From Eubacteriales bacterium (lineage in GTDB: Bacteria > Bacillota > Clostridia > Oscillospirales > CAG-272), in the NCBI GenBank assembly GCA_045576815.1, contig JAZNHD010000051.1:995-64994 (forward strand): a stretch of DNA of 64,000 bases, given 5' to 3'. The notes beneath the pieces were generated by a model. It saw only the letters and a list, made by a program, of their open reading frames with translations. It was not told the origin of the DNA and ran no database searches. Position numbers and translations under genes: made by a program. This document shows, piece by piece, positions 23,460-39,693 of the stretch (within the stretch, counting starts at the first letter, position 1; every line of letters begins with the position of its first letter).

Positions 23460-23497
23460 AAACCACCCGTCAAGCAATCCTTGACGGGTGGTTTCTT
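23460..23497. terminator. Bidirectional terminator
   Basis: aaaccacccgtcaag...cttgacgggtggttt. Confidence 0.8.
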
Positions 23498-25905
23498 TAT
23501 AGCTTTTCAATTTTCAAAACGATGACGCTCATGTCGTCGCGACAGCGTGTGTGGGCCTTGGCTTCTTTAAGTATCAGGTCTGCGTATGCTCTTGGCTCGG
23601 TCGGCGCAGGCCTTGAGAGCAGCTCGAGCAGCCAGGGTGCATCCTCTGCGGATTGGCAGATGCCGTCGGAAAGCATAATTACAAAATCCTCACCTTTTAC
23701 CTCAACCGCTATTCTTTCGGTATCTATTTTTTTCATAAGGCCTATCGGTGCCGTCTGGGAGCGCAGACGGAAAATTGACGAGCCGCGCTTTACAAAGGAT
23801 GGAGCGGCACCGCTTTTTAAGAAGATTGTAGAGCCATTTATTAAATCAAATTCAAAAAGGTCGACAGAGGCAGAGCACTCCTCTCCTCTGCGCCTTATTG
23901 CTTCGCTGAGCAGTGCTAACACGGTTTCCTTCGTAGCCCCGTGAGAGAGAGCCTTCTCTATGAAGCTTGCTGCAAATGAGGAGGTTTCCTTTGCTACCTC
24001 GCCTCTTCCCATTCCGTCGGATATGAGAGCGTAGAAGCGGTCATCGCAAGACTCAAATACGCTTACGGTATCACCGGACACCTCGTCCCCCTCGCCGGCA
24101 GTAAGGGCGGAGGCGCACAGAATTCTATACGAGCGCGCCGCTCCGCACTCAAGCAACGCCATCTTTCCTCGCTTGAAGAATTCAGGCACACCGAGCCTTA
24201 TACCTAGTCTGGACTCGATATCCTCTCTGAGCTTTCTTGAGGCTATCCTATCACCGCTATCGTCCTCTGCCGCTATTATGACGTGCGGCCGCCTTTCGCC
24301 AAAAACCCGAGCCACTCCGTCAGATAGACCGTTTGCCTTCAAGGTGTCCGACAGTAATTCGGATAGAGTAGGATTGTGTGCGGTTTCTCTTTCGTCGGAG
24401 AGGCGAGATTCGTTTATCAGCTTTGAGATGAGCTCGTATTCGTCAGCCGATGAGCTGCGTTCGCTGATTTTGTATTTTTCGCGCTCCGCCTCTGCGACGC
24501 GCTTCCCGATTCTCTCAGCAAGGGACTGTGCGCAGTGGCAAAACTCGTCCTCGCCGTTCATATCCTCTGACGTAAGGCGCTCACCCCTCAGGAGCTTACT
24601 TGCAATTTTTTTGACACCCTTTTGGGCGGGAAAAATATTCTCCTTTTCGCAAAGTGTCCTCTCGGTGCAGGTCGAACACTGCTCGTTTGCCGTATCAATA
24701 ATTATAGCCTCGTATTCCTCAGCGGATAGCGATGCTCGTTCGCCGGCAAAGCCTCTTACTATTCCGCCGAGCGAGGATAGAGATTCCTCAAGCGCGAGAA
24801 GGCCGCCGCGGTATTTGTTTTTGTAATTAAGAGCCACCGTGCCGACCATATCCTTTGCGTTGTCACCGCATTTTTCCGCTTCTCCATCACTCATCTCCGT
24901 AGAGAGGTTTTTCAAGAGAGGTGCGACGAGCGTCGCTGCTATCGCATATTCCGGAAGAGTGGATACAAATCCGAGAACTCCGCCCGAGTATGCGCTCCAA
25001 GCCGAGAGTGCCGCACCGCCGCCGACAAGGGCGTAAAGCGGTCCGAGACCGAAAAGAAGACCGGATGAAAGCCCTGCAAGAGCAAAGGATACTGCGTACG
25101 AGCCCGACACTCCGAGTGAGGATACAAAGCCAACCGCAAGAGCGCGCGCTGCGCCGAACCTCCTTGCTACAAGCAGCGTTATAAGAGAGACGAAAACATA
25201 GGCGAGATTTATCCCGAAAAGCTCAAAGGAAGCGAGGGACATCGTGAGGAGCAAGAGAGAGAAGAGCGCTGAGCCTTGAAAGAAAAGGAGCTTATACTTC
25301 TTGGCCTCGTCAACACCGGAAAGTGAAAAAATAGGCCGTTTTTCATAAAGCAACTCGCTAACACCTATTTCTGAGCCAAAAACACCCGAGAAAACGAACA
25401 CGAGCGCCGGCGGCACAAGGACCATTGTTGCGCCAAAAAGCACTCCCTCGACAGTGAAGCCGGATAAAAGCAGCTCGTATGCTGCCGTTATAAAGCCACC
25501 GATAATCGCGGCAGAGGCACGCAAAAGATAACCTTCACCAAAAAGCCTTGCCGCCCCCTTTTTATCAGCACCCGATGTTATTATCCGAAGAAAAACTGTC
25601 AGAAGAGACGTGACTCCGTAAATTATACCGTCAGCCCCAAGAGTCAGAGAGCCGAGAGCGGCACCGATAAGCGCGGAGAATACTCGCGTAGGAAGAGCCG
25701 CTACAAACGCAATACCTATCGGATAAGCACCAAAGATGAAGTGACATCTTGCGAATAGGAGGGCGACGGTCAGCGAGGCAAGCTCATATAAAAGCCCACC
25801 GCCTCTTTCGGTACGTAGGCCCTTTGTCAATGAGCCGAATTTTTCAAAAATACCGGGGCGTCTTTCCTCGGTGCGCTCGGTTGTTTTTTCCGTTGTTTTG
25901 TTCAT
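23497..25905 (-). CDS. spoIIE: Stage II sporulation protein E (PP2C phosphatase)
   Basis: Multi-TM N-terminus, CxxCxxxxxC, VSGD, ISDGMG, KSGAAPSF, SDGI, DDMS. Confidence 0.85.
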   Translation of the reverse strand: MNKTTEKTTERTEERRPGIFEKFGSLTKGLRTERGGGLLYELASLTVALLFARCHFIFGAYPIGIAFVAALPTRVFSALIGAALGSLTLGADGIIYGVTSLLTVFLRIITSGADKKGAARLFGEGYLLRASAAIIGGFITAAYELLLSGFTVEGVLFGATMVLVPPALVFVFSGVFGSEIGVSELLYEKRPIFSLSGVDEAKKYKLLFFQGSALFSLLLLTMSLASFELFGINLAYVFVSLITLLVARRFGAARALAVGFVSSLGVSGSYAVSFALAGLSSGLLFGLGPLYALVGGGAALSAWSAYSGGVLGFVSTLPEYAIAATLVAPLLKNLSTEMSDGEAEKCGDNAKDMVGTVALNYKNKYRGGLLALEESLSSLGGIVRGFAGERASLSAEEYEAIIIDTANEQCSTCTERTLCEKENIFPAQKGVKKIASKLLRGERLTSEDMNGEDEFCHCAQSLAERIGKRVAEAEREKYKISERSSSADEYELISKLINESRLSDERETAHNPTLSELLSDTLKANGLSDGVARVFGERRPHVIIAAEDDSGDRIASRKLREDIESRLGIRLGVPEFFKRGKMALLECGAARSYRILCASALTAGEGDEVSGDTVSVFESCDDRFYALISDGMGRGEVAKETSSFAASFIEKALSHGATKETVLALLSEAIRRRGEECSASVDLFEFDLINGSTIFLKSGAAPSFVKRGSSIFRLRSQTAPIGLMKKIDTERIAVEVKGEDFVIMLSDGICQSAEDAPWLLELLSRPAPTEPRAYADLILKEAKAHTRCRDDMSVIVLKIEKL

Positions 25906-25964
25906 ACTGATTTCCCTTTCAAAGAGGATATATGAGTATTCTAATACAGACCTGAAAAGAAAAA

Positions 25965-26005
25965 GGTCGAAGTCGGTCTGTCGCAAAGTCAACTCGTCTG
26001 TCGAG
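25965..26005. promoter_or_regulatory. Putative Spo0A boxes
   Basis: GGTCGAA, TGTCGCA and TGTCGAG (consensus TGNCGAA) clustered upstream of spoIIE. Confidence 0.45.
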
Positions 26006-26162
26006 AGGGAAAGAATTTTTCGTAAATTTTCACACGGGTAGGTCTTTTTGTCCGCTTTTTTCGGAATTTGCGAAAAGTTTACGGAATAAAAAGGCCGCCT
26101 TTTGAGTACAATTTGCAATTTCGTAAAAAAAGGAAGCATCCGTACAGGATGCTTCCTTTTCA

Positions 26163-27521
26163 TCAGTTTTTAAGCGAGTGTATCGGTGCCGGAATTCTTC
26201 CGCCGCGCTCAACAAACGCCTTGCAGGATTCCTTATGAACCGGCATTATAGGTGCATAGCCGAGAAGACCGCCAAACTCGGCAGATTCACCGACGCCCTT
26301 GCCCCATACGGGGATAACGCGTACTGCAGTGGTTTTCGTATTAACGACACCTATCGCGATTTCATCGGCAATAATTCCGGAGATGGTAGAGGCGTCGGTG
26401 TCGCCGGGAATTGCAATCATGTCAAGTCCGACGGAACATACCGCGGTCATAGCTTCGAGCTTTTCAAGGGTGAGAACACCCAGCTCTGCCGCCTCAATCA
26501 TTCCTCTGTCCTCAGACACGGGAATAAATGCGCCCGAAAGGCCTCCAACGTGGCTTGATGCCATAACACCGCCTTTTTTCACCGCGTCGTTGAGGAGTGC
26601 GAGAGCTGCCGTTGTGCCGTGCGTGCCGCAACGCTCGAGGCCCATGTTTTCAAGTATCTCGGCAACCGAGTCACCTGCCGCAGGTGTGGGAGCAAGCGAG
26701 AGGTCGACTATGCCGTAGGGAGTGCCGAGCCTTCTCGCAGCCTCGGAGGCGATAAGCTGTCCGACTCTCGTGATTTTGAAGGCTATCTTCTTTACCGTGT
26801 CGGCAAGGGCAGAGAAGTCGCAGCTTCCTGCCTCTTTGATTGCCGCAGCAACGACACCGGGGCCGCTTACACCGACGTTAATGACCGTGTCGGGCTCACC
26901 CATTCCGTGAACCGCACCCGCCATAAAGGGGTTGTCCTCGGGAATGTTCGCAAATACCACAAGCTTTGCACAGCCGATAGAGTCGTTGTCCTTTGTGAGA
27001 TATGCGGTTTCCTTGATAATTTCGCCCATGCGCCGTACGGCATCCATATTGATGCCTGCCTTGGTCGTAGCAACGTTTACCGAGGAGCAGATGCGGGTGG
27101 TCTCAGATAGTGCCTCGGGAATAGCCTCTATAAGATTTTCGGCTCCGCGGATAGCACCCTTTTGCACGTGGGCGGAAAATCCGCCGATGAAGTTTACTCC
27201 AAGCTCGCCTGCCGCACGCTCAAGCACCTTGGCAAGTCTGACAAAGCCCGAAGGTGAAAGTCCTGCGCCAATATAAGATATAGGCGTTACGGATATGCGC
27301 TTATTTACAATTGGAATACCGTAGGTGCGCTCAAGCTCCTCGCATACCGATACGAGATTTTTTGCAGAGTTGGTGATTTTTTCGTATATCTTCTCTTCGA
27401 GGCGTGTGGGGTCGTCGGATATGCAATCGAAAAGGGATATACCCATAGTAACCGTTCTGATATCGAGGTTTTCCTCGCGTATCATACGTATAGTTTCGAG
27501 AATGTCGGTCGTATTAAGCAT
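26163..27521 (-). CDS. PFL family protein (UPF0210/DUF711)
   Basis: [34 protein letters not shown]. Confidence 0.9.
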
Positions 27522-29025: not shown

Positions 29026-30669
29026 ATGAGTACTTCTAGACTTGACGGTAAAATGTTAAAGCAAATGCTTATCGGCGGTGCCGAGAGTATTCGCTCTAAT
29101 ATGGCTGAAATTAACGACCTTAACGTTTTCCCTGTGCCCGACGGCGATACGGGAACAAATATGACAAAAACCATCGAAGGCGGTCTCTCGGAGATAGTAT
29201 CGGGCGATTCCGACAGCGCCTCGACTGTTATTTCTAAGTTTGCTCACGGTATGCTTCTCGGTGCGAGAGGCAACTCCGGTGTTATTCTGTCACAGATTTT
29301 CGCCGGAATAAAGGCGGGGCTTGATAAATATGACACGGTTGGCGCTGTAGAGCTTGCCGAGGCGTATAGGAGCGGTATAGAGAAGTCCTACTCTGCGGTC
29401 AATAACCCCACGGAGGGTACTATTCTCACGGTTTTCCGTGAGAGTGTTGAGTATGCGGCAAAGAACATAAATTCCGAGTCCTCACTCGACGATTTTTACA
29501 GGCTTCATATAGAAGAAGCAAAGCGCTCGCTAGAGCGTACGAAGGAGCTGTTACCGGTGCTTGCGGAGGCAGATGTGGTTGACTCGGGCGGAGCCGGATA
29601 TCTTGCGATAGCGCTCGGTATGTACGCGTCGCTCTCGGGCAAGGTAAAGGCGGACTCCTATAAGTTTGACTCCCAGTCTGCGAGCCTATCTGTAAATCTT
29701 GACGATTTCACACGCGATTCAGTGCTTGAGTTTGGATATTGCACCGAGTTTTTGCTCCGTCTTATGAGCGCCAAGGTCGACCCCGACGCGTTTTCTGTTG
29801 ACGAGGTTACAGATGTGCTTGAGTCGCTTGGCGGAGAGAGCGTTGTTGCCTACAAGGAGGGCGATATAGTAAAGGTGCACGTTCACACCCATACCCCCGG
29901 CGATATTCTTTCTGCCTGCCAGCGCTTTGGAGAATTTCTTACCGTGAAAATAGAAAATATGTCGCTCGGTCACAGCGAGGCTGCCCCGAAAAAGAAAAAG
30001 CCGAAGAAGCTCTCGGTGCTTGCGGTTGCATCGGGAGAGGGAATTTCCGGTCTCTTTACAGATATGGGCGCTGATGGTATAATTTCGGGCGGACAGACTC
30101 AGAACCCCTCGGCAGAGGAGTTTATTGAAGCGTTTAAGAGCCACGAGGCCGAGAACATTATAGTTTTACCTAACAACAAAAACGTCATTCTTACAGCAAA
30201 GCAGGCGGCAGAGCTTTACGACTCGTCAAGGATTCATATAATCCCCACTGCAACTCTTATGGAGGGCTATGCGGCGCTGTCGGTTCTAACCCCCGGTGTA
30301 ACTGACGTGAATTCGCTATGCGACAGTCTTACCCGTGCGGCAAAGAACGTGGCGGGCGGCGAGGTCACGCGCGCGGTGCGCGACGCTACGGTGTCTGGCG
30401 TAGAGGTGAAATGCAGTCAGTACTTTGCGATAGTGGACGGCAAAATTCTTGCCGTGTCAGACGACAGGGAAGAGACCCTTCTCGGTATGCTTGCGGCCAT
30501 TGAGGATATTGATGAGCGAGAGATAATTTCTCTTTTCGTAGGACGAGAGGTTGACGACGACACCCGCGCGGATATAACCGAGCGCATTGAGGAGCTCTAT
30601 CCCGATTTTGAAGTTATCGTTTATAAGGGCGGACAAGAGGTTTACGACTACCTCGTTGCCGTTGAATGA
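29026..30669 (+). CDS. fakA: DAK2 domain fatty acid kinase catalytic subunit
   Basis: LNVFPVPDGDTGTNM, GARGNSGVILSQ, GGQTQNPS. Confidence 0.9.
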   Translation: MSTSRLDGKMLKQMLIGGAESIRSNMAEINDLNVFPVPDGDTGTNMTKTIEGGLSEIVSGDSDSASTVISKFAHGMLLGARGNSGVILSQIFAGIKAGLDKYDTVGAVELAEAYRSGIEKSYSAVNNPTEGTILTVFRESVEYAAKNINSESSLDDFYRLHIEEAKRSLERTKELLPVLAEADVVDSGGAGYLAIALGMYASLSGKVKADSYKFDSQSASLSVNLDDFTRDSVLEFGYCTEFLLRLMSAKVDPDAFSVDEVTDVLESLGGESVVAYKEGDIVKVHVHTHTPGDILSACQRFGEFLTVKIENMSLGHSEAAPKKKKPKKLSVLAVASGEGISGLFTDMGADGIISGGQTQNPSAEEFIEAFKSHEAENIIVLPNNKNVILTAKQAAELYDSSRIHIIPTATLMEGYAALSVLTPGVTDVNSLCDSLTRAAKNVAGGEVTRAVRDATVSGVEVKCSQYFAIVDGKILAVSDDREETLLGMLAAIEDIDEREIISLFVGREVDDDTRADITERIEELYPDFEVIVYKGGQEVYDYLVAVE

Positions 30670-30683
30670 TTTGGAGGTGTCCT

Positions 30684-31649
30684 ATGTATAAGATAGCTAT
30701 TGATACAATGGGCAGTGACAGAGGCCCTGAGATGATTGTGGCGGGCGCAAAGCTCGCGCTTGAGAGGCACGCGGAGCTCGAGGTGTGCCTTGTCGGCGAT
30801 TGCGATTTCCTTGCCGCCGAGTGTGAAAAGCAGGCGCTTCCCGCGGGGCGTGTTGAAATTTTACACGCATCCGACGTAATAACGAACTACGACAGTCCTG
30901 CGGCAGCGATTTTCGGGAAGCCTGACTCGTCGCTCGTTGTGGCGCTTAAGGCTGTTTCGGAGAGAGAGGACCTCGTAGGCCTTATAAACGCGGGCTCGAC
31001 GGGCGCACTCCTTGCCGGAGCCGTAAGATTTCTTTCTACTCCCGAGAGGACAAGACCTGCTCTTGCGGCAGTGCTTCCTGCGGCGGACGGCAGCTTTACC
31101 TGCCTTGTAGATACGGGTGCTACCATCGACTGTACCGCAAGTCAGCTCATTCATTTTGCAAGACTCGGACGCGACTTTATGAAAAGACTTTACAGTCTTG
31201 AAAATCCAAGAATAGGACTTTTATCAAACGGAGCGGAGGATACGAAGGGCAATGCTCTTGTTAAAGAAACCCACGCGCTTCTCCGCGCGGCAGAGGATAT
31301 TAACTTTGTCGGCAACATCGAGGGTACGGGTGCGCTTTCCGGCTCGTGTGACGTGCTTGTATGCGACGGCTTTGCCGGAAATCAGGTGCTTAAGGTGTCC
31401 GAGGGCATAGCAAAGAGAATTATTACCGATATCGTTAAGTATGCAAGGAAGACCGGAAGAGAGGATTATATGCAGCTTGTCGGGCACCTTATGGCGCTTT
31501 ACGACTTTAACTCGCTTGGCGGCGGCATCATTCTCGGTACGAAGAAAACGGTTATAAAGGCACACGGTGCGGCAAACGAGGCTTCGATTATGAATACCGC
31601 GGGTATGCTTCTCAATCTTGCAAAAAACAGGCAAGTTTTTGAAACTTAA
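30684..31649 (+). CDS. plsX: Phosphate acyltransferase
   Basis: IAIDTMGSD, AGSTGA, RPALA, GNIEG, DGFAGN, KAHG. Confidence 0.88.
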   Translation: MYKIAIDTMGSDRGPEMIVAGAKLALERHAELEVCLVGDCDFLAAECEKQALPAGRVEILHASDVITNYDSPAAAIFGKPDSSLVVALKAVSEREDLVGLINAGSTGALLAGAVRFLSTPERTRPALAAVLPAADGSFTCLVDTGATIDCTASQLIHFARLGRDFMKRLYSLENPRIGLLSNGAEDTKGNALVKETHALLRAAEDINFVGNIEGTGALSGSCDVLVCDGFAGNQVLKVSEGIAKRIITDIVKYARKTGREDYMQLVGHLMALYDFNSLGGGIILGTKKTVIKAHGAANEASIMNTAGMLLNLAKNRQVFET

Positions 31650-31682
31650 GTTTACATATTTACACAAAAAGGAGAGTAAAAG

Positions 31683-32579
31683 ATGAAAACCAAAGTTATG
31701 TGCACCTCTACGGGTTGTATTGAATATGCTCCTGAAAGATACAGAGAGCTCGGAATTGATATTATAAGAGTTCACGTTCACTTTGCAGGAAAGGAGTATC
31801 TTGAGGGCTTTGACCTTGACCCTGTTGATTTTTACAATCAGCTCGAGGCTCTTAAAAATCCTAAGGACAATCTTCCCTACACGAGTATGCCTACTCATCA
31901 GGAAATTTGTGAGCATTTTGAAGGCGCTATTGCCGAGGGCTACGACGAGGTTATTGTTTTTGCTATAAGCTCCGGACTTGGCGGTACATATAATGAGATT
32001 CGTCTTGTTGCAAAGGACTTTGAGGACAGAATAAGGATACACGTTGTTGACACCAGAATAACCAGCTTCGGCGAGGGCTTCCTTGCTATCCGCGCGGCAG
32101 AGATGGTGCGTGATGGTGTGCCCACCGAGACTATACTTAAAGAGGTTGCCTGGATGATGGAACGTCAGGAGTTTATGGGCGTTGATGGCAAGCTCGACTA
32201 CCTAATTTACAATGGCAGACTTAAGGGCGGTAAGGCGTTTCTCGGTCAAATGTTCAATATTTGCCCCGTTGTTCACTTCAATCGCGCTGGAGAGTGCGTT
32301 GCTCTCGAGAGCGTCAGAACACAGAAGAAGGCGCTTATGCGCACTTGCGAGATAATCAAGGAAAGGATAGGAGACAGAGCCCCCGAGGATTATAAGCTCT
32401 GGCACGTTTACACAGGTCCCTCGCTCATTGCTACTCTTAAAGAAATAGAGAAGAAGTATGGCATCGAGACTAATCACGAGGATGTAATTATGTCTCCCGT
32501 CAGCGGTGCACATAACGGACCGTGGCTTGCAGGCTACGGACTTGCATTCCTTCGCCGCGACGACGAGCCTCTTGAGTAA
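31683..32579 (+). CDS. fakB: DegV family fatty acid-binding protein
   Basis: PYTSMP, ISSGLGGTY, YLIYNGRL, GAHNGP. Confidence 0.85.
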   Translation: MKTKVMCTSTGCIEYAPERYRELGIDIIRVHVHFAGKEYLEGFDLDPVDFYNQLEALKNPKDNLPYTSMPTHQEICEHFEGAIAEGYDEVIVFAISSGLGGTYNEIRLVAKDFEDRIRIHVVDTRITSFGEGFLAIRAAEMVRDGVPTETILKEVAWMMERQEFMGVDGKLDYLIYNGRLKGGKAFLGQMFNICPVVHFNRAGECVALESVRTQKKALMRTCEIIKERIGDRAPEDYKLWHVYTGPSLIATLKEIEKKYGIETNHEDVIMSPVSGAHNGPWLAGYGLAFLRRDDEPLE

Positions 32580-32592
32580 GGGCGGTATAGCT

Positions 32593-33714
32593 ATGGTAAA
32601 TATAAAAGAGGTTAAGGCAAAAAGAGATATAAAGGAGTTTATAGAGTTTCCTCTTCGCCTTTACCGCGGCTGTGAGTTTTTCGTGCCGCCGCTTTATGCA
32701 GACGAGAAGAGACTCATAGAGAATAACCCGAACGCTGATATTGCAGATAGCGTATATTACCTTGCTGAGCGTGACGGAGAGACTGTCGGACGTATACAGG
32801 GAATAATTCAGCATCAGTATAATGAGAAGAATTCTGCTCGCCGCGTGAGATTTACGCGCTTTGATTCGATAAACGACACCGAGGTGTCGGGAGCTCTTTT
32901 TGCTGCCGTCGAAGCATGGGGCAAGGCGCATGGCATGGATACCATATGCGGCCCTCTTGGCTACAGCGACCTTGACAGAGAGGGGCTTCTTGTGGAGGGC
33001 TTCTCGGAGAACTCCACCTTTGAGGAGCAGTATAACTACGAGTATTACGGCGCACTCTGCGAGGCAGCAGGACTTACGAAAGAGGTAGACTGGCTTGAGT
33101 TTGAGCTTCGCGCTCCGGAGAAGAGAAACGAGATGCTAAAGAGGGTTGCCGAGCGTGCGCTTGAGTTAAATAAGCTCCACGTGGTAAATACAGACGGTAT
33201 CTCGAAAAAGGACTACATAAATAAGTATAAGGACGGTATTTTCGACTGCATTGACGAGTGCTACAGCAAGCTCTACGGTACAGCCCCTATCTCACCCAAA
33301 ATGCGCGAGGAGCTTATCGACCAGTTTATGCTTATCGTAAATAAGGAATTTCTTTTCCTTATCTGCGACGAGAACGAGAGGGTTGTTGCGTTCGGTCTTT
33401 GCTTCCCCGGCATAGGAGACGCTCTCAAGCGCTCGGGCGGCAGACTTACTCTCCCCGCGCTCATAAAGCTGCTCAGCCTTGTGAAAAAGCCTAAGGTTAT
33501 TGACCTGGGGCTTGTCGCGGTGCTCCCCGAGTATCAGAACTCGGGCGTCAATGCCGCAATAGTGAACGGACTTGTTGAAATGCTGCTTTCGGGCAGGGCA
33601 GAGGCGTGCGAGACTAACCTCAATCTTGAAACCAACACTGCGGTTATCGCACAGTGGAAGCATTTTACCAAAAGACAGCATAAGCGCCGCCGCGCGTACG
33701 TTAAGAATATATAA
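32593..33714 (+). CDS. YghO-like GNAT acyltransferase, similar to bacterial ceramide synthase
   Basis: FIEFPLRLY, VGRI, GPLGYSDLDREGLLVEGF, YNYEYY, AVLPEYQNSGVNA, HKRRRAY. Confidence 0.72.
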   Translation: MVNIKEVKAKRDIKEFIEFPLRLYRGCEFFVPPLYADEKRLIENNPNADIADSVYYLAERDGETVGRIQGIIQHQYNEKNSARRVRFTRFDSINDTEVSGALFAAVEAWGKAHGMDTICGPLGYSDLDREGLLVEGFSENSTFEEQYNYEYYGALCEAAGLTKEVDWLEFELRAPEKRNEMLKRVAERALELNKLHVVNTDGISKKDYINKYKDGIFDCIDECYSKLYGTAPISPKMREELIDQFMLIVNKEFLFLICDENERVVAFGLCFPGIGDALKRSGGRLTLPALIKLLSLVKKPKVIDLGLVAVLPEYQNSGVNAAIVNGLVEMLLSGRAEACETNLNLETNTAVIAQWKHFTKRQHKRRRAYVKNI

Positions 33715-33728
33715 GGAAGGAAACCGAT

Positions 33729-33947
33729 ATGTTAGAAAGACTTAAGGAAATTCTTGCGAAGGTCACACCCGACACCGATATGTCTGCCGTTACAGAGGAG
33801 TCAAGACTTGTCGAGGACCTTGGCTTTGACTCGCTTGCCATTATGATGATGGCGATGGAGATTGAGGACGCGTTTAACTTTAAATTTACTGAGATGGTGC
33901 GCTTTGTCACCGTCGGCGACGTTTGCCGCTATCTCGAGAGTCGTTAA
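33729..33947 (+). CDS. Acyl carrier protein
   Basis: DLGFDSL phosphopantetheine site. Confidence 0.9.
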   Translation: MLERLKEILAKVTPDTDMSAVTEESRLVEDLGFDSLAIMMMAMEIEDAFNFKFTEMVRFVTVGDVCRYLESR

Positions 33948-33948
33948 A

Positions 33949-34638
33949 ATGCTGTTAAAAGGACTTCAGAAGCTGACGCTTCTCGACTTTCCGGGCAGAC
34001 TCGCAGCTACCGTGTTCGTCGGCGGCTGCAATTTCCGTTGCCCGTTTTGCCACAACGCATCACTCGTTTTGCCAGAGAAATTTGGGCCGACCTTGCCCGA
34101 GGAGGAGTTCTTTTCCTTTCTTGAGTCGCGCAAAGGAAAAATTACCGGTGTGTGCGTTAGCGGCGGTGAGCCTACGCTCCACGCTGAGCTGCCCGCGTTT
34201 TTAAAAAGAATAAAGGATATGGCTCTTGCGGTAAAGCTCGACACCAACGGCTATCGCCCGGACGTGCTCCTCTCGCTCATTGACAGAGGACTTGTCGATT
34301 ACGTGGCGATGGATATAAAGAACTCACCCGACAGGTACGGTGAGACTGTCGGTATAGAAAACTTTGACGTGTCTCCTATCAAAAAAAGCGTCGAAATTCT
34401 CCTTTCCGGTCGGGTGGAGTACGAGTTCCGCACCACTGTGATGCGTGAGCTTCACACCGAGAGGGATATTATCGAGATGGGCAAGCTGTGCGAGGGAGCG
34501 AAAAAATATTTCCTTCAGAGCTTCAAGGACTCGGGCGACCTCATCGGAGAGGGCTTTACGGCTTATTCCGAGGCAGAAATGAATGCCCTACAAAAAAGCC
34601 TTGCCGAGTTTGTTCCTTTTGCACAAACAAGGGGTTAA
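33949..34638 (+). CDS. nrdG: Anaerobic ribonucleotide reductase activating enzyme
   Basis: GCNFRCPFCHN, GGEPTL, KLDTNG; adjacent to nrdD. Confidence 0.9.
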   Translation: MLLKGLQKLTLLDFPGRLAATVFVGGCNFRCPFCHNASLVLPEKFGPTLPEEEFFSFLESRKGKITGVCVSGGEPTLHAELPAFLKRIKDMALAVKLDTNGYRPDVLLSLIDRGLVDYVAMDIKNSPDRYGETVGIENFDVSPIKKSVEILLSGRVEYEFRTTVMRELHTERDIIEMGKLCEGAKKYFLQSFKDSGDLIGEGFTAYSEAEMNALQKSLAEFVPFAQTRG

Positions 34639-34674
34639 AGGCAAAAAATTCCAAAAAGCCGAAACTCATTGAAA

Positions 34675-34759
34675 ACACTATATCTTGTGGCGAATTTTGT
34701 AAAAATCTACAATATTTTGCGTTTCTCCTGTTGACAAACCGATTTATTTGTGATATGAT
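34675..34759 (+). promoter_or_regulatory. Tandem NrdR boxes and nrdD promoter
   Basis: ACACTATATCTTGTGG (34675) and CTACAATATTTTGCGT (34707) 32 bp apart; TTGACA-N17-TATGAT. Confidence 0.8.
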
Positions 34760-34836
34760 AATAACGCACACTCTTCGTGCTACTTGCGTTTTTTAACATA
34801 TCAAAATAAAGAATTTGAAGACAGGAGAAGCTTTTT

Positions 34837-37224
34837 ATGTACACAGTCGTTAAAAGAGACGGTAAGATTGTAGACTTTAATCTTACCAAGATTTCAGAAG
34901 CTATCACCATGGCGTTTGATGCGCAGGAAAGAAACTATAATCAGGACATTATTGATTTCCTCGCTCTTAAGGTTACTGCCGATTTTGAGCCAAAAATCAA
35001 AAACCAGCATATAGCAGTTGAGGATATTCAGGACAGCGTTGAGTCGGTTCTCGTTCAGGCAGGATATGCAGACGTTGCAAAGGCGTATATCCTTTACCGC
35101 CGTCAGAGAGAGAAGCTCCGTAACGTTAAGTCCACCGTGCTTGACTATAAGTCCATCGTTGACAGCTACGTTAAGGTTACCGACTGGCGCGTTAAGGAGA
35201 ACTCCACCGTTACCTACTCGGTAGGCGGTCTTATCCTTAATAATTCGGGCGCTATCACCGCTAACTATTGGCTCTCCGAGGTTTACGATGACGAGATTGC
35301 TAACGCGCACAGAAATGCCGATATACATATTCACGTCCTCTCGATGCTTACGGGCTACTGCGCAGGCTGGTCCTTGAAGCAGCTTATCCAAGAGGGACTT
35401 GGCGGAGTTACCGGCAAGATTACCTCTGCCCCCGCAAAGCACCTTGCAACCCTTTGCAACCAGATGGTCAACTTCCTTGGTATTATGCAGAACGAGTGGG
35501 CAGGCGCGCAGGCATTTTCCTCTTTCGATACCTACCTTGCCCCCTTTGTAAAGGTTGATAACCTTTCCTACGATGCTGTAAAGAAGTGCATAGAGTCCTT
35601 TGTTTACGGTGTTAATACTCCGTCCCGTTGGGGTACGCAGGCGCCCTTCTCGAACATCACTCTTGACTGGGTAGTTCCGAATGACCTGGCAGAGCTCCCC
35701 GCTATCGTTGGCGGCAAGGAGATGGACTTCAAGTATAAGGACTGCAAGCGCGAGATGGATATGATTAACCGCGCCTTCATTGAGACGATGATTGAGGGCG
35801 ATGCTAACGGCCGCGGCTTCCAGTATCCTATCCCCACCTACTCGATAACCAGCGACTTTGACTGGTCGGAGACCGAGAACAACAAGCTCCTTTTCGAGAT
35901 GACCGCAAAGTACGGTACTCCCTATTTCTCGAACTACATCAACAGCGATATGGCTCCTAGCGACGTGCGCTCTATGTGCTGCCGTCTCCGTCTTGACCTG
36001 CGCGAGCTCAGAAAGAAGTCGGGAGGCTTCTTCGGCAGCGGTGAGAGCACCGGTTCTGTCGGCGTTGTTACCATCAATATGCCGAGAATTGCATATCTCG
36101 CAACCGACAAAGAGGACTTCTACAAGCGCCTTGATCGCATGATGGACATCTCCGCACGCAGCCTTAAGGTTAAGAGAACGGTTATAACTAAGCTTCTTGA
36201 AGAGGGACTTTACCCCTACACAAAGCGTTATCTCGGTACATTTGCAAACCACTTCTCGACCATCGGTCTTATCGGTATGAACGAGGTTGGCCTTAATGCG
36301 AAGTGGCTCGGTAAGGATATGACTCATAAGGAGACTCAGGAGTTCACCAAAGAGGTTCTCAACCATATGAGAGAGCGCCTTTCCGATTATCAGGAGGCGT
36401 ACGGCGACCTTTACAACCTCGAGGCAACCCCCGCAGAGTCTACCACCTACCGTCTTGCAAAGCACGATATGCGCCGTTATCCCGACATCATCACCGCGGC
36501 TGACACGGCAAAGGGCGAGACTCCTTATTACACCAATTCCTCTCACCTTCCCGTTGGCTATACCGACGATATCTTTGCGGCTCTCGACATTCAGGACGAG
36601 CTTCAGACTCTCTACACCTCGGGTACTGTATTCCACGCATTCCTCGGTGAGAAGCTGCCCTCTTGGAAGTCGGCTGCAACACTTATCCGTACGATAGCAG
36701 AAAACTATAGACTTCCTTACTACACTCTTTCTCCCACCTATTCGGTATGTAAGAACCACGGATATCTTTCCGGTGAGGTTTATACCTGCCCGCACTGTGG
36801 CGAGAAGACCGAGGTTTACAGCCGCATCACCGGCTACTACCGCCCCGTTCAGAACTGGAACGACGGTAAAACTCAGGAGTATAAGGACAGAGTGGTCTAT
36901 ATTCCCGAGAAGTTTGGCTCAAAGTCGCCTATCGGTAACAAGATTGCCGATGAGGATAAGGCAGAAATGACCGCATCGGGCGAGGACAGAGTTCTTCTTT
37001 TCACCACCGCAAATTGCCCTAAGTGCAGAATGGCAAAGGCGTTCCTTGATAAAGCAGGTATTTCTTACGAGGTGCTGCTCGCTGAGGAGAGCGTCGAGCT
37101 CGTTAACCTCTACGGCATTAAGGAGGCTCCTACGCTTATTGTTATTTCGGGTGGTGTAGCGGAGAAGATTGCGAACCCCTCTAACATCAAGGCCTTCTGT
37201 GAGAAGGTTGGAACTATCGCGTAA
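34837..37224 (+). CDS. nrdD: Class III ribonucleotide reductase with N-terminal ATP cone and C-terminal glutaredoxin-like domain
   Basis: VVKRDG cone, SMCCRL, YSRITGYY glycyl radical loop, C-terminal CPKC. Confidence 0.93.
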   Translation: MYTVVKRDGKIVDFNLTKISEAITMAFDAQERNYNQDIIDFLALKVTADFEPKIKNQHIAVEDIQDSVESVLVQAGYADVAKAYILYRRQREKLRNVKSTVLDYKSIVDSYVKVTDWRVKENSTVTYSVGGLILNNSGAITANYWLSEVYDDEIANAHRNADIHIHVLSMLTGYCAGWSLKQLIQEGLGGVTGKITSAPAKHLATLCNQMVNFLGIMQNEWAGAQAFSSFDTYLAPFVKVDNLSYDAVKKCIESFVYGVNTPSRWGTQAPFSNITLDWVVPNDLAELPAIVGGKEMDFKYKDCKREMDMINRAFIETMIEGDANGRGFQYPIPTYSITSDFDWSETENNKLLFEMTAKYGTPYFSNYINSDMAPSDVRSMCCRLRLDLRELRKKSGGFFGSGESTGSVGVVTINMPRIAYLATDKEDFYKRLDRMMDISARSLKVKRTVITKLLEEGLYPYTKRYLGTFANHFSTIGLIGMNEVGLNAKWLGKDMTHKETQEFTKEVLNHMRERLSDYQEAYGDLYNLEATPAESTTYRLAKHDMRRYPDIITAADTAKGETPYYTNSSHLPVGYTDDIFAALDIQDELQTLYTSGTVFHAFLGEKLPSWKSAATLIRTIAENYRLPYYTLSPTYSVCKNHGYLSGEVYTCPHCGEKTEVYSRITGYYRPVQNWNDGKTQEYKDRVVYIPEKFGSKSPIGNKIADEDKAEMTASGEDRVLLFTTANCPKCRMAKAFLDKAGISYEVLLAEESVELVNLYGIKEAPTLIVISGGVAEKIANPSNIKAFCEKVGTIA

Positions 37225-38676: not shown

Positions 38677-38874
38677 TTATTTGTCATTTGTCAAGGACTC
38701 ATCAAGCGCGTCCTCTACCCTGACAAGCACAAGCTCGGGATTTTTTATAAGCACGCCGTCCTTTGTCGCGATAAGCTCAACGGCTTTCCCGAGTCCAAAG
38801 CGCTCTCGCAGCTCCTTTGGAATAACCAGCCGCCCAAGACCGTCTATTTCCTTTACAATTCCTATTTTATCCAT
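38677..38874 (-). CDS. AbrB/MazE/SpoVT family protein (copy 1)
   Basis: GIVKEIDGLGRLVIPKELR. Confidence 0.88.
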   Translation of the reverse strand: MDKIGIVKEIDGLGRLVIPKELRERFGLGKAVELIATKDGVLIKNPELVLVRVEDALDESLTNDK

Positions 38875-38995
38875 AACAGCTCTCCCAAAAGTCCTTATAT
38901 CAATATTATAGTGACTGATGAGTCGCTTTTCAAGAGGGGGTTTGAAAATTGTGATATAATTTTTCAAAATCGCAAGAGATTTGGAGGGAAGCTCG

Positions 38996-39373: not shown

Positions 39374-39571
39374 TTATTTGTCATTTGTCAAGGACTCATC
39401 AAGCGCGTCCTCTACCCTGACAAGCACAAGCTCGGGGTTTTTGATAAGCACACCGTCCTTTGTCGCGATAAGCTCAACGGCTTTCCCGAGTCCAAAGCGC
39501 TCTCGCAGCTCCTTTGGAATAACCAGCCGCCCAAGACCGTCTATTTCCTTTACAATTCCTATTTTATCCAT
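39374..39571 (-). CDS. AbrB/MazE/SpoVT family protein (copy 2, identical protein)
   Basis: Differs from copy 1 at 3 synonymous positions. Confidence 0.88.
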   Translation of the reverse strand: MDKIGIVKEIDGLGRLVIPKELRERFGLGKAVELIATKDGVLIKNPELVLVRVEDALDESLTNDK

Positions 39572-39693
39572 AAAACCAAAGCTCCGCTTTTGATAATTTT
39601 TGTTTTGTCTTGTCATAGGACAATCTTTTTCCAAAATTAGTTTATCATAAAACGTGTCTTATGTCAAGACAAAACTCGTTTTGGAGATTTATT

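Follow-up and report, generated by a model that had tools for sequence, protein, structure and literature searches.

A YghO/bCerS-family acyltransferase encoded within a conserved second FakAB/PlsX/acyl carrier protein operon of uncultured Clostridia, with a predicted N-acyl lipid product

A 64,000-nucleotide stretch of contig JAZNHD010000051.1 from an Eubacteriales bacterium (assembly GCA_045576815.1), here called the window, was found to contain five genes in the order fakA-plsX-fakB-GNAT-acp, all on the + strand and spanning positions 29026-33947. Judged from sequence, these genes place a known enzyme family, the YghO/bCerS acyltransferases, in a new pathway context that is real and conserved, with a predicted product. 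The operon is a second, dedicated set of FakAB, PlsX and acyl carrier protein (ACP), remodelled throughout its clade, and the GNAT quite possibly uses acyl-ACP to N-acylate a salvaged sphingoid base, a tentative assignment.

The initial annotation had described five tightly spaced, co-oriented genes, and this was borne out, with gaps of 14, 33, 13 and 14 nt when plsX is started at its ATG at 30684 (Table 1). A Shine-Dalgarno sequence, GGAGG, lies 5' of that ATG, and the longest plsX reading frame, from 30666, would overlap the fakA stop. In profile searches, FakA contained the Dak2, FakA_M and FakA_C domains and scored 527 bits with TIGR03599 (YloV subfamily, cut-off 396), which was under the FakA equivalog cut-off. 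PlsX passed the TIGR00182 equivalog cut-off (248.7 against 243.4 bits), as did FakB/DegV that of TIGR00762 (209 against 100 bits). The match of the GNAT, started at the ATG at 32593, to PF00583 was weak (E 2e-6). The operon ACP matched PF00550 (E 2e-9) with a score under every ACP cut-off and failed the housekeeping ACP model TIGR00517 (41 against 70 bits). The GC content of the operon genes was 0.47-0.52, the same as that of neighbouring genes, and the closest named records to the operon came from uncultured Clostridia/Eubacteriales genomes.

Table 1. Genes of the operon, with positions in the window
Feature	Positions	Strand	Basis and remarks
fakA, fatty acid kinase catalytic subunit, 547 aa	29026..30669	+	Pfam/NCBIfam; second copy, 42% identity to C49 fakA
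plsX, acyl-phosphate:ACP transacylase, 321 aa	30684..31649	+	Second copy, 36% identity to C13 plsX
fakB/DegV fatty-acid-binding subunit, 298 aa	31683..32579	+	TIGR00762; binding residues mostly kept
YghO/bCerS-family tandem-GNAT acyltransferase, 373 aa	32593..33714	+	PF00583, homology, AlphaFold2
Atypical acyl carrier protein, 72 aa, Ser35 kept	33729..33947	+	PF00550; 35% identity to C38 ACP

Membership of the GNAT in the YghO/bCerS family, as first proposed from motifs, was upheld by full-length alignments: identity to E. coli YghO was 27% over 381 columns (E 2e-35), and to a homologue from Bacteroides finegoldii it was 39% (E 8e-91). Identity was 28% to a Rubrobacter and 25% to a Roseomonas homologue, and 34 positions were invariant across seven family sequences, three of them proteobacterial or actinobacterial homologues. 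This is the family of the proteins named bCerS, CerS or aca, of which the GNAT is a putative orthologue (Caulobacter CCNA_01212/CC_1154, E. coli YghO ECD_02850 and B. fragilis BF9343_4218). The initial annotation had listed four motifs as common to YghO-like proteins. All four are present in the GNAT, as GPLGYSDLDREGLLVEGF (residues 120-137), YNYEYY (147-152), AVLPEYQNSGVNA (309-321) and QHKRRRA (362-368), and are matched with substitutions in B. finegoldii, but they are poorly shared by E. coli YghO and the Roseomonas and Rubrobacter proteins. Because of this poor sharing beyond the Bacteroides homologue, the motifs mark a Bacteroidales-type subfamily and not the proteobacterial one. In a FastTree phylogeny that comprised 170 family members and had YghO as its root, the GNAT fell within a large clade (0.99) shared with the B. 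finegoldii protein and within a smaller clade (0.92) whose members are mostly ordered fakA-plsX-fakB-GNAT-acp, a separate clade of the Bacteroidales-type subfamily. The B. finegoldii tree partner is encoded upstream of parE-coaD; it may be the orthologue of BF9343_4218.

The AlphaFold2 model of the GNAT (mean pLDDT 89.6) was a soluble tandem GNAT without transmembrane helices, which is in keeping with the description of bCerS as a peripheral cytoplasmic protein (PMC11087976). Comparison with Foldseek and its re-alignment returned tandem GNATs of 10-13% identity as the top structural matches: the C. acetobutylicum glucosamine N-acetyltransferase 5KF1 (Z 21.2, rmsd 3.8 Å over 295 residues), the clavulanate tandem GNAT 2WPW and MshD 1OZP share the two-lobed fold, and they are uninformative on substrate. 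A PDB sequence search gave nothing under E 0.15, an ESM Atlas search gave only generic GNAT clusters, cluster names were uninformative, and no bCerS model was matched in NCBIfam.

E. coli yghO adjoins spt, acp, an epimerase, an acyl-AMP ligase and lptFG, its spt neighbour exceeding the NCBIfam cut-off for serine palmitoyltransferase (SPT), and the Rubrobacter homologue is flanked by an SPT-like gene on one side and a reductase gene on the other. Family matches were present in 69 of 401 genomes of the phylum, mostly at 25-30% identity, and none of the 20 of these 69 loci that were inspected had an spt, fak, plsX or acp neighbour; Bacteroidales genomes carry two to four paralogues each. With stand-alone Bacillota members and Bacteroidales paralogues making the family so broad, membership alone is no proof of ceramide synthesis. 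In one stand-alone subclade (L039, L041, L042, L044, L047 and L091), the GNAT is followed 3' by a small membrane protein that we take to be GtrA-like; it had no NCBIfam match at 1e-20. One Bacillota genome (L168) has three family members within 6 kb, adjoining what are presumably two sugar-cation symporter-like proteins and a glycosyltransferase. Among published members, yghO is given as the orthologue of the Caulobacter N-acyltransferase, "aca" (PMC9386255), and deletion of the B. fragilis homologue is reported to cause a build-up of 3-ketosphinganine (bioRxiv 10.1101/2023.05.23.541633).

Conservation of the operon, proposed as a check in the initial annotation, was confirmed for the closer homologues. 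GNAT homologues occurred in 20 of 61 relatives and in 45 of 301 genomes of the order. Of 69 loci examined, in 68 of which BLAST found the GNAT, those at least 44% identical to the window protein had a fakA, fakB, plsX or acp neighbour in 28 of 29 cases (two of the 29 being halves of one gene), against 3 of 39 below 44%, all with a DegV gene only. The same kinds of neighbour were found in 61 of the best 80 of 591 confirmed loci in a GTDB survey; among these 80, fakB was adjacent to the GNAT in 60 and acp was part of the unit in 39, some contigs being cut. Gene orders (A, fakA; X, plsX; B, fakB; G, GNAT; P, acp) included A-X-B-G-P, A-B-G-X-P, G-A-B, X-G-P-B-A, A-B-G and B-G, and the host labels among the best 80 comprised Clostridia, Christensenellaceae, Lachnospiraceae, Erysipelotrichaceae, Spirochaetales and Bacteroidales. 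Four records labelled Bacteroidales (L222, L244, L247 and L253) contain the clostridial-type operon as fakA-fakB-GNAT-plsX-acp together with one to three other family paralogues, for which horizontal transfer is the likely explanation. In two further Bacteroidales loci (L264 and L265), an AMP-ligase and an ACP precede other family members, making up a comparable cassette of loader, carrier and acyltransferase.

The initial annotation had also inferred a loading line onto a dedicated ACP. Consistent with this, the 1.49-Mb, 81%-complete assembly contains further copies of the loading genes: fakA-fakB on contig C49, plsX beside rnc and smc on C13, and acp on C38. It also encodes plsY, two PlsC-family genes and a phosphopantetheinyl transferase; of the type II fatty acid synthesis (FASII) genes, ketoacyl synthase, FabH, FabD, FabZ and AccA were not found in it. 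At least two plsX genes were present in 16 of 26 genomes with a GNAT at least 44% identical, in none of 24 with a stand-alone GNAT and in 1 of 30 without a GNAT. The operon was therefore rejected as a housekeeping phospholipid set, here and in most relatives, since separate housekeeping copies exist; the exceptions are G211 and G286, in which the operon plsX was the sole one found.

Three proteins of the second set, FakB, PlsX and ACP, have changes that run through the whole clade. The hairpin segment of the window PlsX is 37 aa rather than 42 and lacks the KxGA-hydrophobic tip, having the polar sequence ARKTGRED where B. subtilis has TSKLAAAVL, the tip reported to mediate membrane insertion (PMC10146087, PMC6702220). 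Across the clade, every hairpin that fitted the search pattern had 37-38 aa, compared with 42 in most other PlsX proteins, and by sequence the hydrophobic tip is absent. FakB keeps T67, R179, R212 and H277, equivalent to T61, R170, R202 and H264, and has Gly100 at the position of S93, a placement inferred from alignment offsets, and both features hold for FakB throughout the clade; T61, S93, R170 and H264 are described as carboxylate-binding (PMC10848957). Helix II of the operon ACP reads DSLAIMMMAMEIE, the acidic residues after the serine being missing, and the clade pattern DSLAxMMxxMEIE contrasts with DSLDxLxLLMTxE in sister ACPs. All three proteins match the families of the FakAB-PlsX route of Firmicutes (PMC10146087, PMC10848957), but besides the altered hairpin and FakB site the window set is paralogous and has its own ACP and acyltransferase. 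These clade-specific changes suggest an insulated acyl pool, in which the altered PlsX and ACP would keep acyl groups apart from phospholipid synthesis, perhaps for the sake of an unusual fatty acid.

A quite improbable alternative is that the operon serves auxiliary salvage of a different class of fatty acid into ordinary glycerolipids, with the GNAT acting as an O-acyltransferase or carried as a passenger. Among relatives, FabF was detected in 3 of 50 genomes with the GNAT but in 10 of 30 without it, and its rarity points to salvage dependence of the GNAT-positive cells; the sole plsX of G211 and G286 and the glycine at the Ser93 site of FakB would also fit. Against this, the window genome already has PlsY, the two PlsC-family genes and the housekeeping set, and the GNAT stays with the loader genes across rearrangements and moves with them into spirochaete and Bacteroidales genomes. 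Transfer from an amide to a thioester is uphill, and FakAB in the same operon would be needless, if the system instead ran in reverse and moved acyl groups from ceramides of the host or diet to ACP, nourishing a cell that is auxotrophic for fatty acids. Although no FASII was found and PlsX is reported to be reversible (PMC10146087), such a reversal is highly improbable.

In the favoured pathway, FakB would bind free fatty acid, FakA would phosphorylate it on FakB to acyl-phosphate, and PlsX would hand the acyl group to the operon's dedicated ACP, steps that follow known Fak/PlsX biochemistry (PMC10146087, PMC10848957). The GNAT would then draw on acyl-ACP as donor and form a dihydroceramide-type lipid by N-acylating a long-chain base that the diet, the host or nearby microbes supply; the acceptor is the weakest step. 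As to the donor, it is improbable that the GNAT uses FakB-held acyl-phosphate directly, as PlsY does, with PlsX and ACP as an optional buffer and possibly a long-chain base as acceptor. This is nonetheless a live alternative because FakB, not ACP, is the most constant neighbour of the GNAT, as the counts among the best 80 loci indicate, and four genomes of one genus (G169, G223, G236 and G295) have fakA-fakB-GNAT with no adjoining plsX or acp and a single plsX elsewhere. GNAT folds, however, normally take pantetheine thioesters; in most loci of the window's clade the acp lies directly 3' of the GNAT and has diverged with it, and genomes without a linked plsX-acp pair can use housekeeping PlsX and ACP.

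The acceptor question was approached through the distribution of SPT. The initial annotation had noted that the window contains no SPT gene; the same held for the rest of the 81%-complete assembly, where no alpha-oxoamine synthase (SPT), CerR or KdsR-like gene was found and two CerR queries had no tblastn match. A hidden KdsR was rejected, the best short-chain dehydrogenase/reductase (SDR) scoring 122 bits (cut-off 400) and not being SPT-linked. Among GNAT-positive relatives, 25 of 58 had an alpha-oxoamine synthase, in 27 loci. SPT-like proteins, with 58-100% identity to one query but 33-41% to Kbl, accounted for 21 of these; in 19 of the 21 a KdsR-like SDR lay within 1.5 kb. By clade, in surveys the second of which took in 50 of the 80 GTDB loci, SPT-like genes were present in 9 of 14 sister-clade genomes, in 11 of 18 further sister-operon genomes (three Bacteroidales among them) and in both spirochaete members of the window's own clade; the figure for GNAT-negative genomes of the order was 35 of 256. 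In one of these, a Spirochaetales contig (L195:63-5539), the genes run plsX-fakB-GNAT-acp-NfeD-like-SPFH-like-SPT-like on one strand, with the SPT-like gene 1.5 kb downstream of the operon; the two middle genes are ones we presume to be NfeD-like and SPFH-like. The association in sister clades and spirochaetes suggests that the ancestral role was ceramide synthesis. Without the SPT-like gene of many sister-clade genomes, the clostridial members of the window's clade would have to obtain the long-chain base from outside. A wider scenario is possible but doubtful: among fatty-acid-auxotrophic gut Clostridia, sister lineages would make ceramide de novo with SPT, a KdsR-like enzyme and the operon, and the window's lineage would have lost SPT but retained a remodelled FakAB-PlsX-ACP-bCerS line to re-acylate foreign bases of dietary, host or Bacteroidota origin, the operon having spread horizontally to spirochaetes and Bacteroidales.

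Several observations weigh against N-acylation of a sphingoid base, as do the four genomes with a bare fakA-fakB-GNAT unit. SPT-like genes were found in none of the 36 genomes that represent the clostridial part of the window's clade (the genome studied here plus 12 and 23 from the two surveys), so that the acceptor may have changed, and in none of seven genomes with a stand-alone sister GNAT. All six SPT-like proteins tested had the Bacteroidota SPT model as best match at 521-551 bits, below its cut-off of 640, and three SPT-linked SDRs matched KdsR best at 211-242 bits, below 400. Although 15 of 44 GNAT-positive genomes had an SPT-like gene against 35 of 256 GNAT-negative ones in a draw of 300 genomes, these are kin and not independent, and the counts of related genomes throughout overstate the support. 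A family profile was negative for 33 of the 35 SPT-like, GNAT-negative genomes, the other two giving short matches (E 0.004-0.007). Ceramidase-like N-terminal domains occurred in 8 of the 37 genomes of the clade and in 7 of the 34 that have no GNAT, and in mice given dietary sphinganine about 99% of the labelled gut bacteria are reported to be Bacteroides (PMC7910519).

Two proposals were discarded on these counts. Obligate pairing of SPT with the GNAT was rejected because of the 33 SPT-like genomes without a family member, which may make free sphinganine or use another acyltransferase. A ceramidase as supplier of the sphingoid base was rejected because ceramidase-like domains do not track the clade; the window genome has one weak ceramidase-like N-terminal domain, on C46 (39 bits). 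B. longum is reported to make no long-chain dihydroceramide (PMC7910519), and in a gut community SPT was detected only in E. coli and B. thetaiotaomicron (bioRxiv 2025.09.11.675017).

The absence of SPT-like genes from the clostridial clade leaves either salvage of an outside base or a new amine acceptor. The latter is the main rival to the sphingoid-base reading, though rather unlikely: with the same loading line, the GNAT would N-acylate another amine (an amino acid, ethanolamine, a biogenic amine, an amino sugar or an aminolipid) to give a fatty acid amide. It would account for the remodelling of FakB, PlsX and ACP in the very clade that is without SPT, and it agrees with the stand-alone occurrence of the family in many Bacillota, with nearest solved folds that acylate amino sugars and other small amines, and with the fatty acid amides that gut Clostridia are reported to make by a different route (PMC10191378). 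On the other hand, both spirochaete clade members retain an SPT-like gene, one of them just downstream of the operon, no gene that might supply an amine was observed in linkage with it, and the only family members tested are reported to make ceramide.

Relative to known systems, the window GNAT differs from bCerS in its Gram-positive host and its fakA-plsX-fakB-acp operon, as well as in a genome in which spt, cerR and kdsR-like genes were not found. The AasR-AcpR-Spt module of Rhodobacteria (PMC9386255) likewise places free fatty acid on a specialised ACP for a non-phospholipid product, but the window loader is FakAB with PlsX and not an adenylate-forming synthetase, the consumer would be an N-acyltransferase and not SPT, and the ACP is 23% identical to E. 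coli AcpR. FakAB-PlsX would be a third way of steering fatty acids to the GNAT family, besides AasR/AcpR and the AMP-ligase/ACP cassettes. The fatty acid amide pathway of gut Clostridia (Chang et al. 2021, as cited in PMC10191378) resembles the proposed one in joining scavenged fatty acids to amines. It reportedly uses a condensation domain and a thiolation domain, neither of which is encoded in the operon.

Gut sphingolipid synthesis is credited to Bacteroidota and some Proteobacteria (PMC10191378). If the proposal is true, common uncultured Clostridia would be Gram-positive producers or consumers of host-active ceramides, or else of a hitherto undescribed amide lipid, and a pure sphingolipid-salvage pathway would exist in Gram-positive commensals. 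The system is cofactor-simple and, with five genes, lends itself to reconstitution, whether in vitro or within a laboratory strain. A literature search, with most subscription papers outside its reach, returned no publication linking a YghO/bCerS homologue to fak or plsX. The homologue list of Stankeviciute 2022 may include Bacillota members.

Other features were recorded in the surveyed genomes and around the operon. Order-wide, 50 of 300 genomes had an SPT-like gene of the Bacteroidota type, in most cases next to a KdsR-like SDR (L107-L128, L134-L153 and L266-L277). At L130 (G141:C9), a single reading frame of ~1100 aa joins an AMP-ligase to an alpha-oxoamine synthase and precedes an SDR, and the small genomes G754 and G757 have up to 12 ceramidase-N-terminal-like genes each.

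Downstream of the operon, at 33949-37224, nrdG begins 1 nt past the acp stop and is followed by nrdD, which has an ATP-cone and, at the C-terminus, a glutaredoxin domain. Contig C51 contains another, distant nrdD-like gene further on. As operon members, nrdG, nrdD and truB were rejected because their orientation and presence vary among relatives: one close relative has nrdG in the opposite orientation, and others have no nrdG. At the thresholds used, no sigma-70-like site was found before fakA and no clear terminator 3' of acp; the best pre-gene promoter site was at 34731, upstream of nrdD. Two near-identical short reading frames (38677-38967 and 39374-39634), presumably AbrB/SpoVT-like, flank a small helix-turn-helix reading frame in what is a local duplication. 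A SpoIIE-family gene at 23497-26163 suggests that the organism is a spore former.

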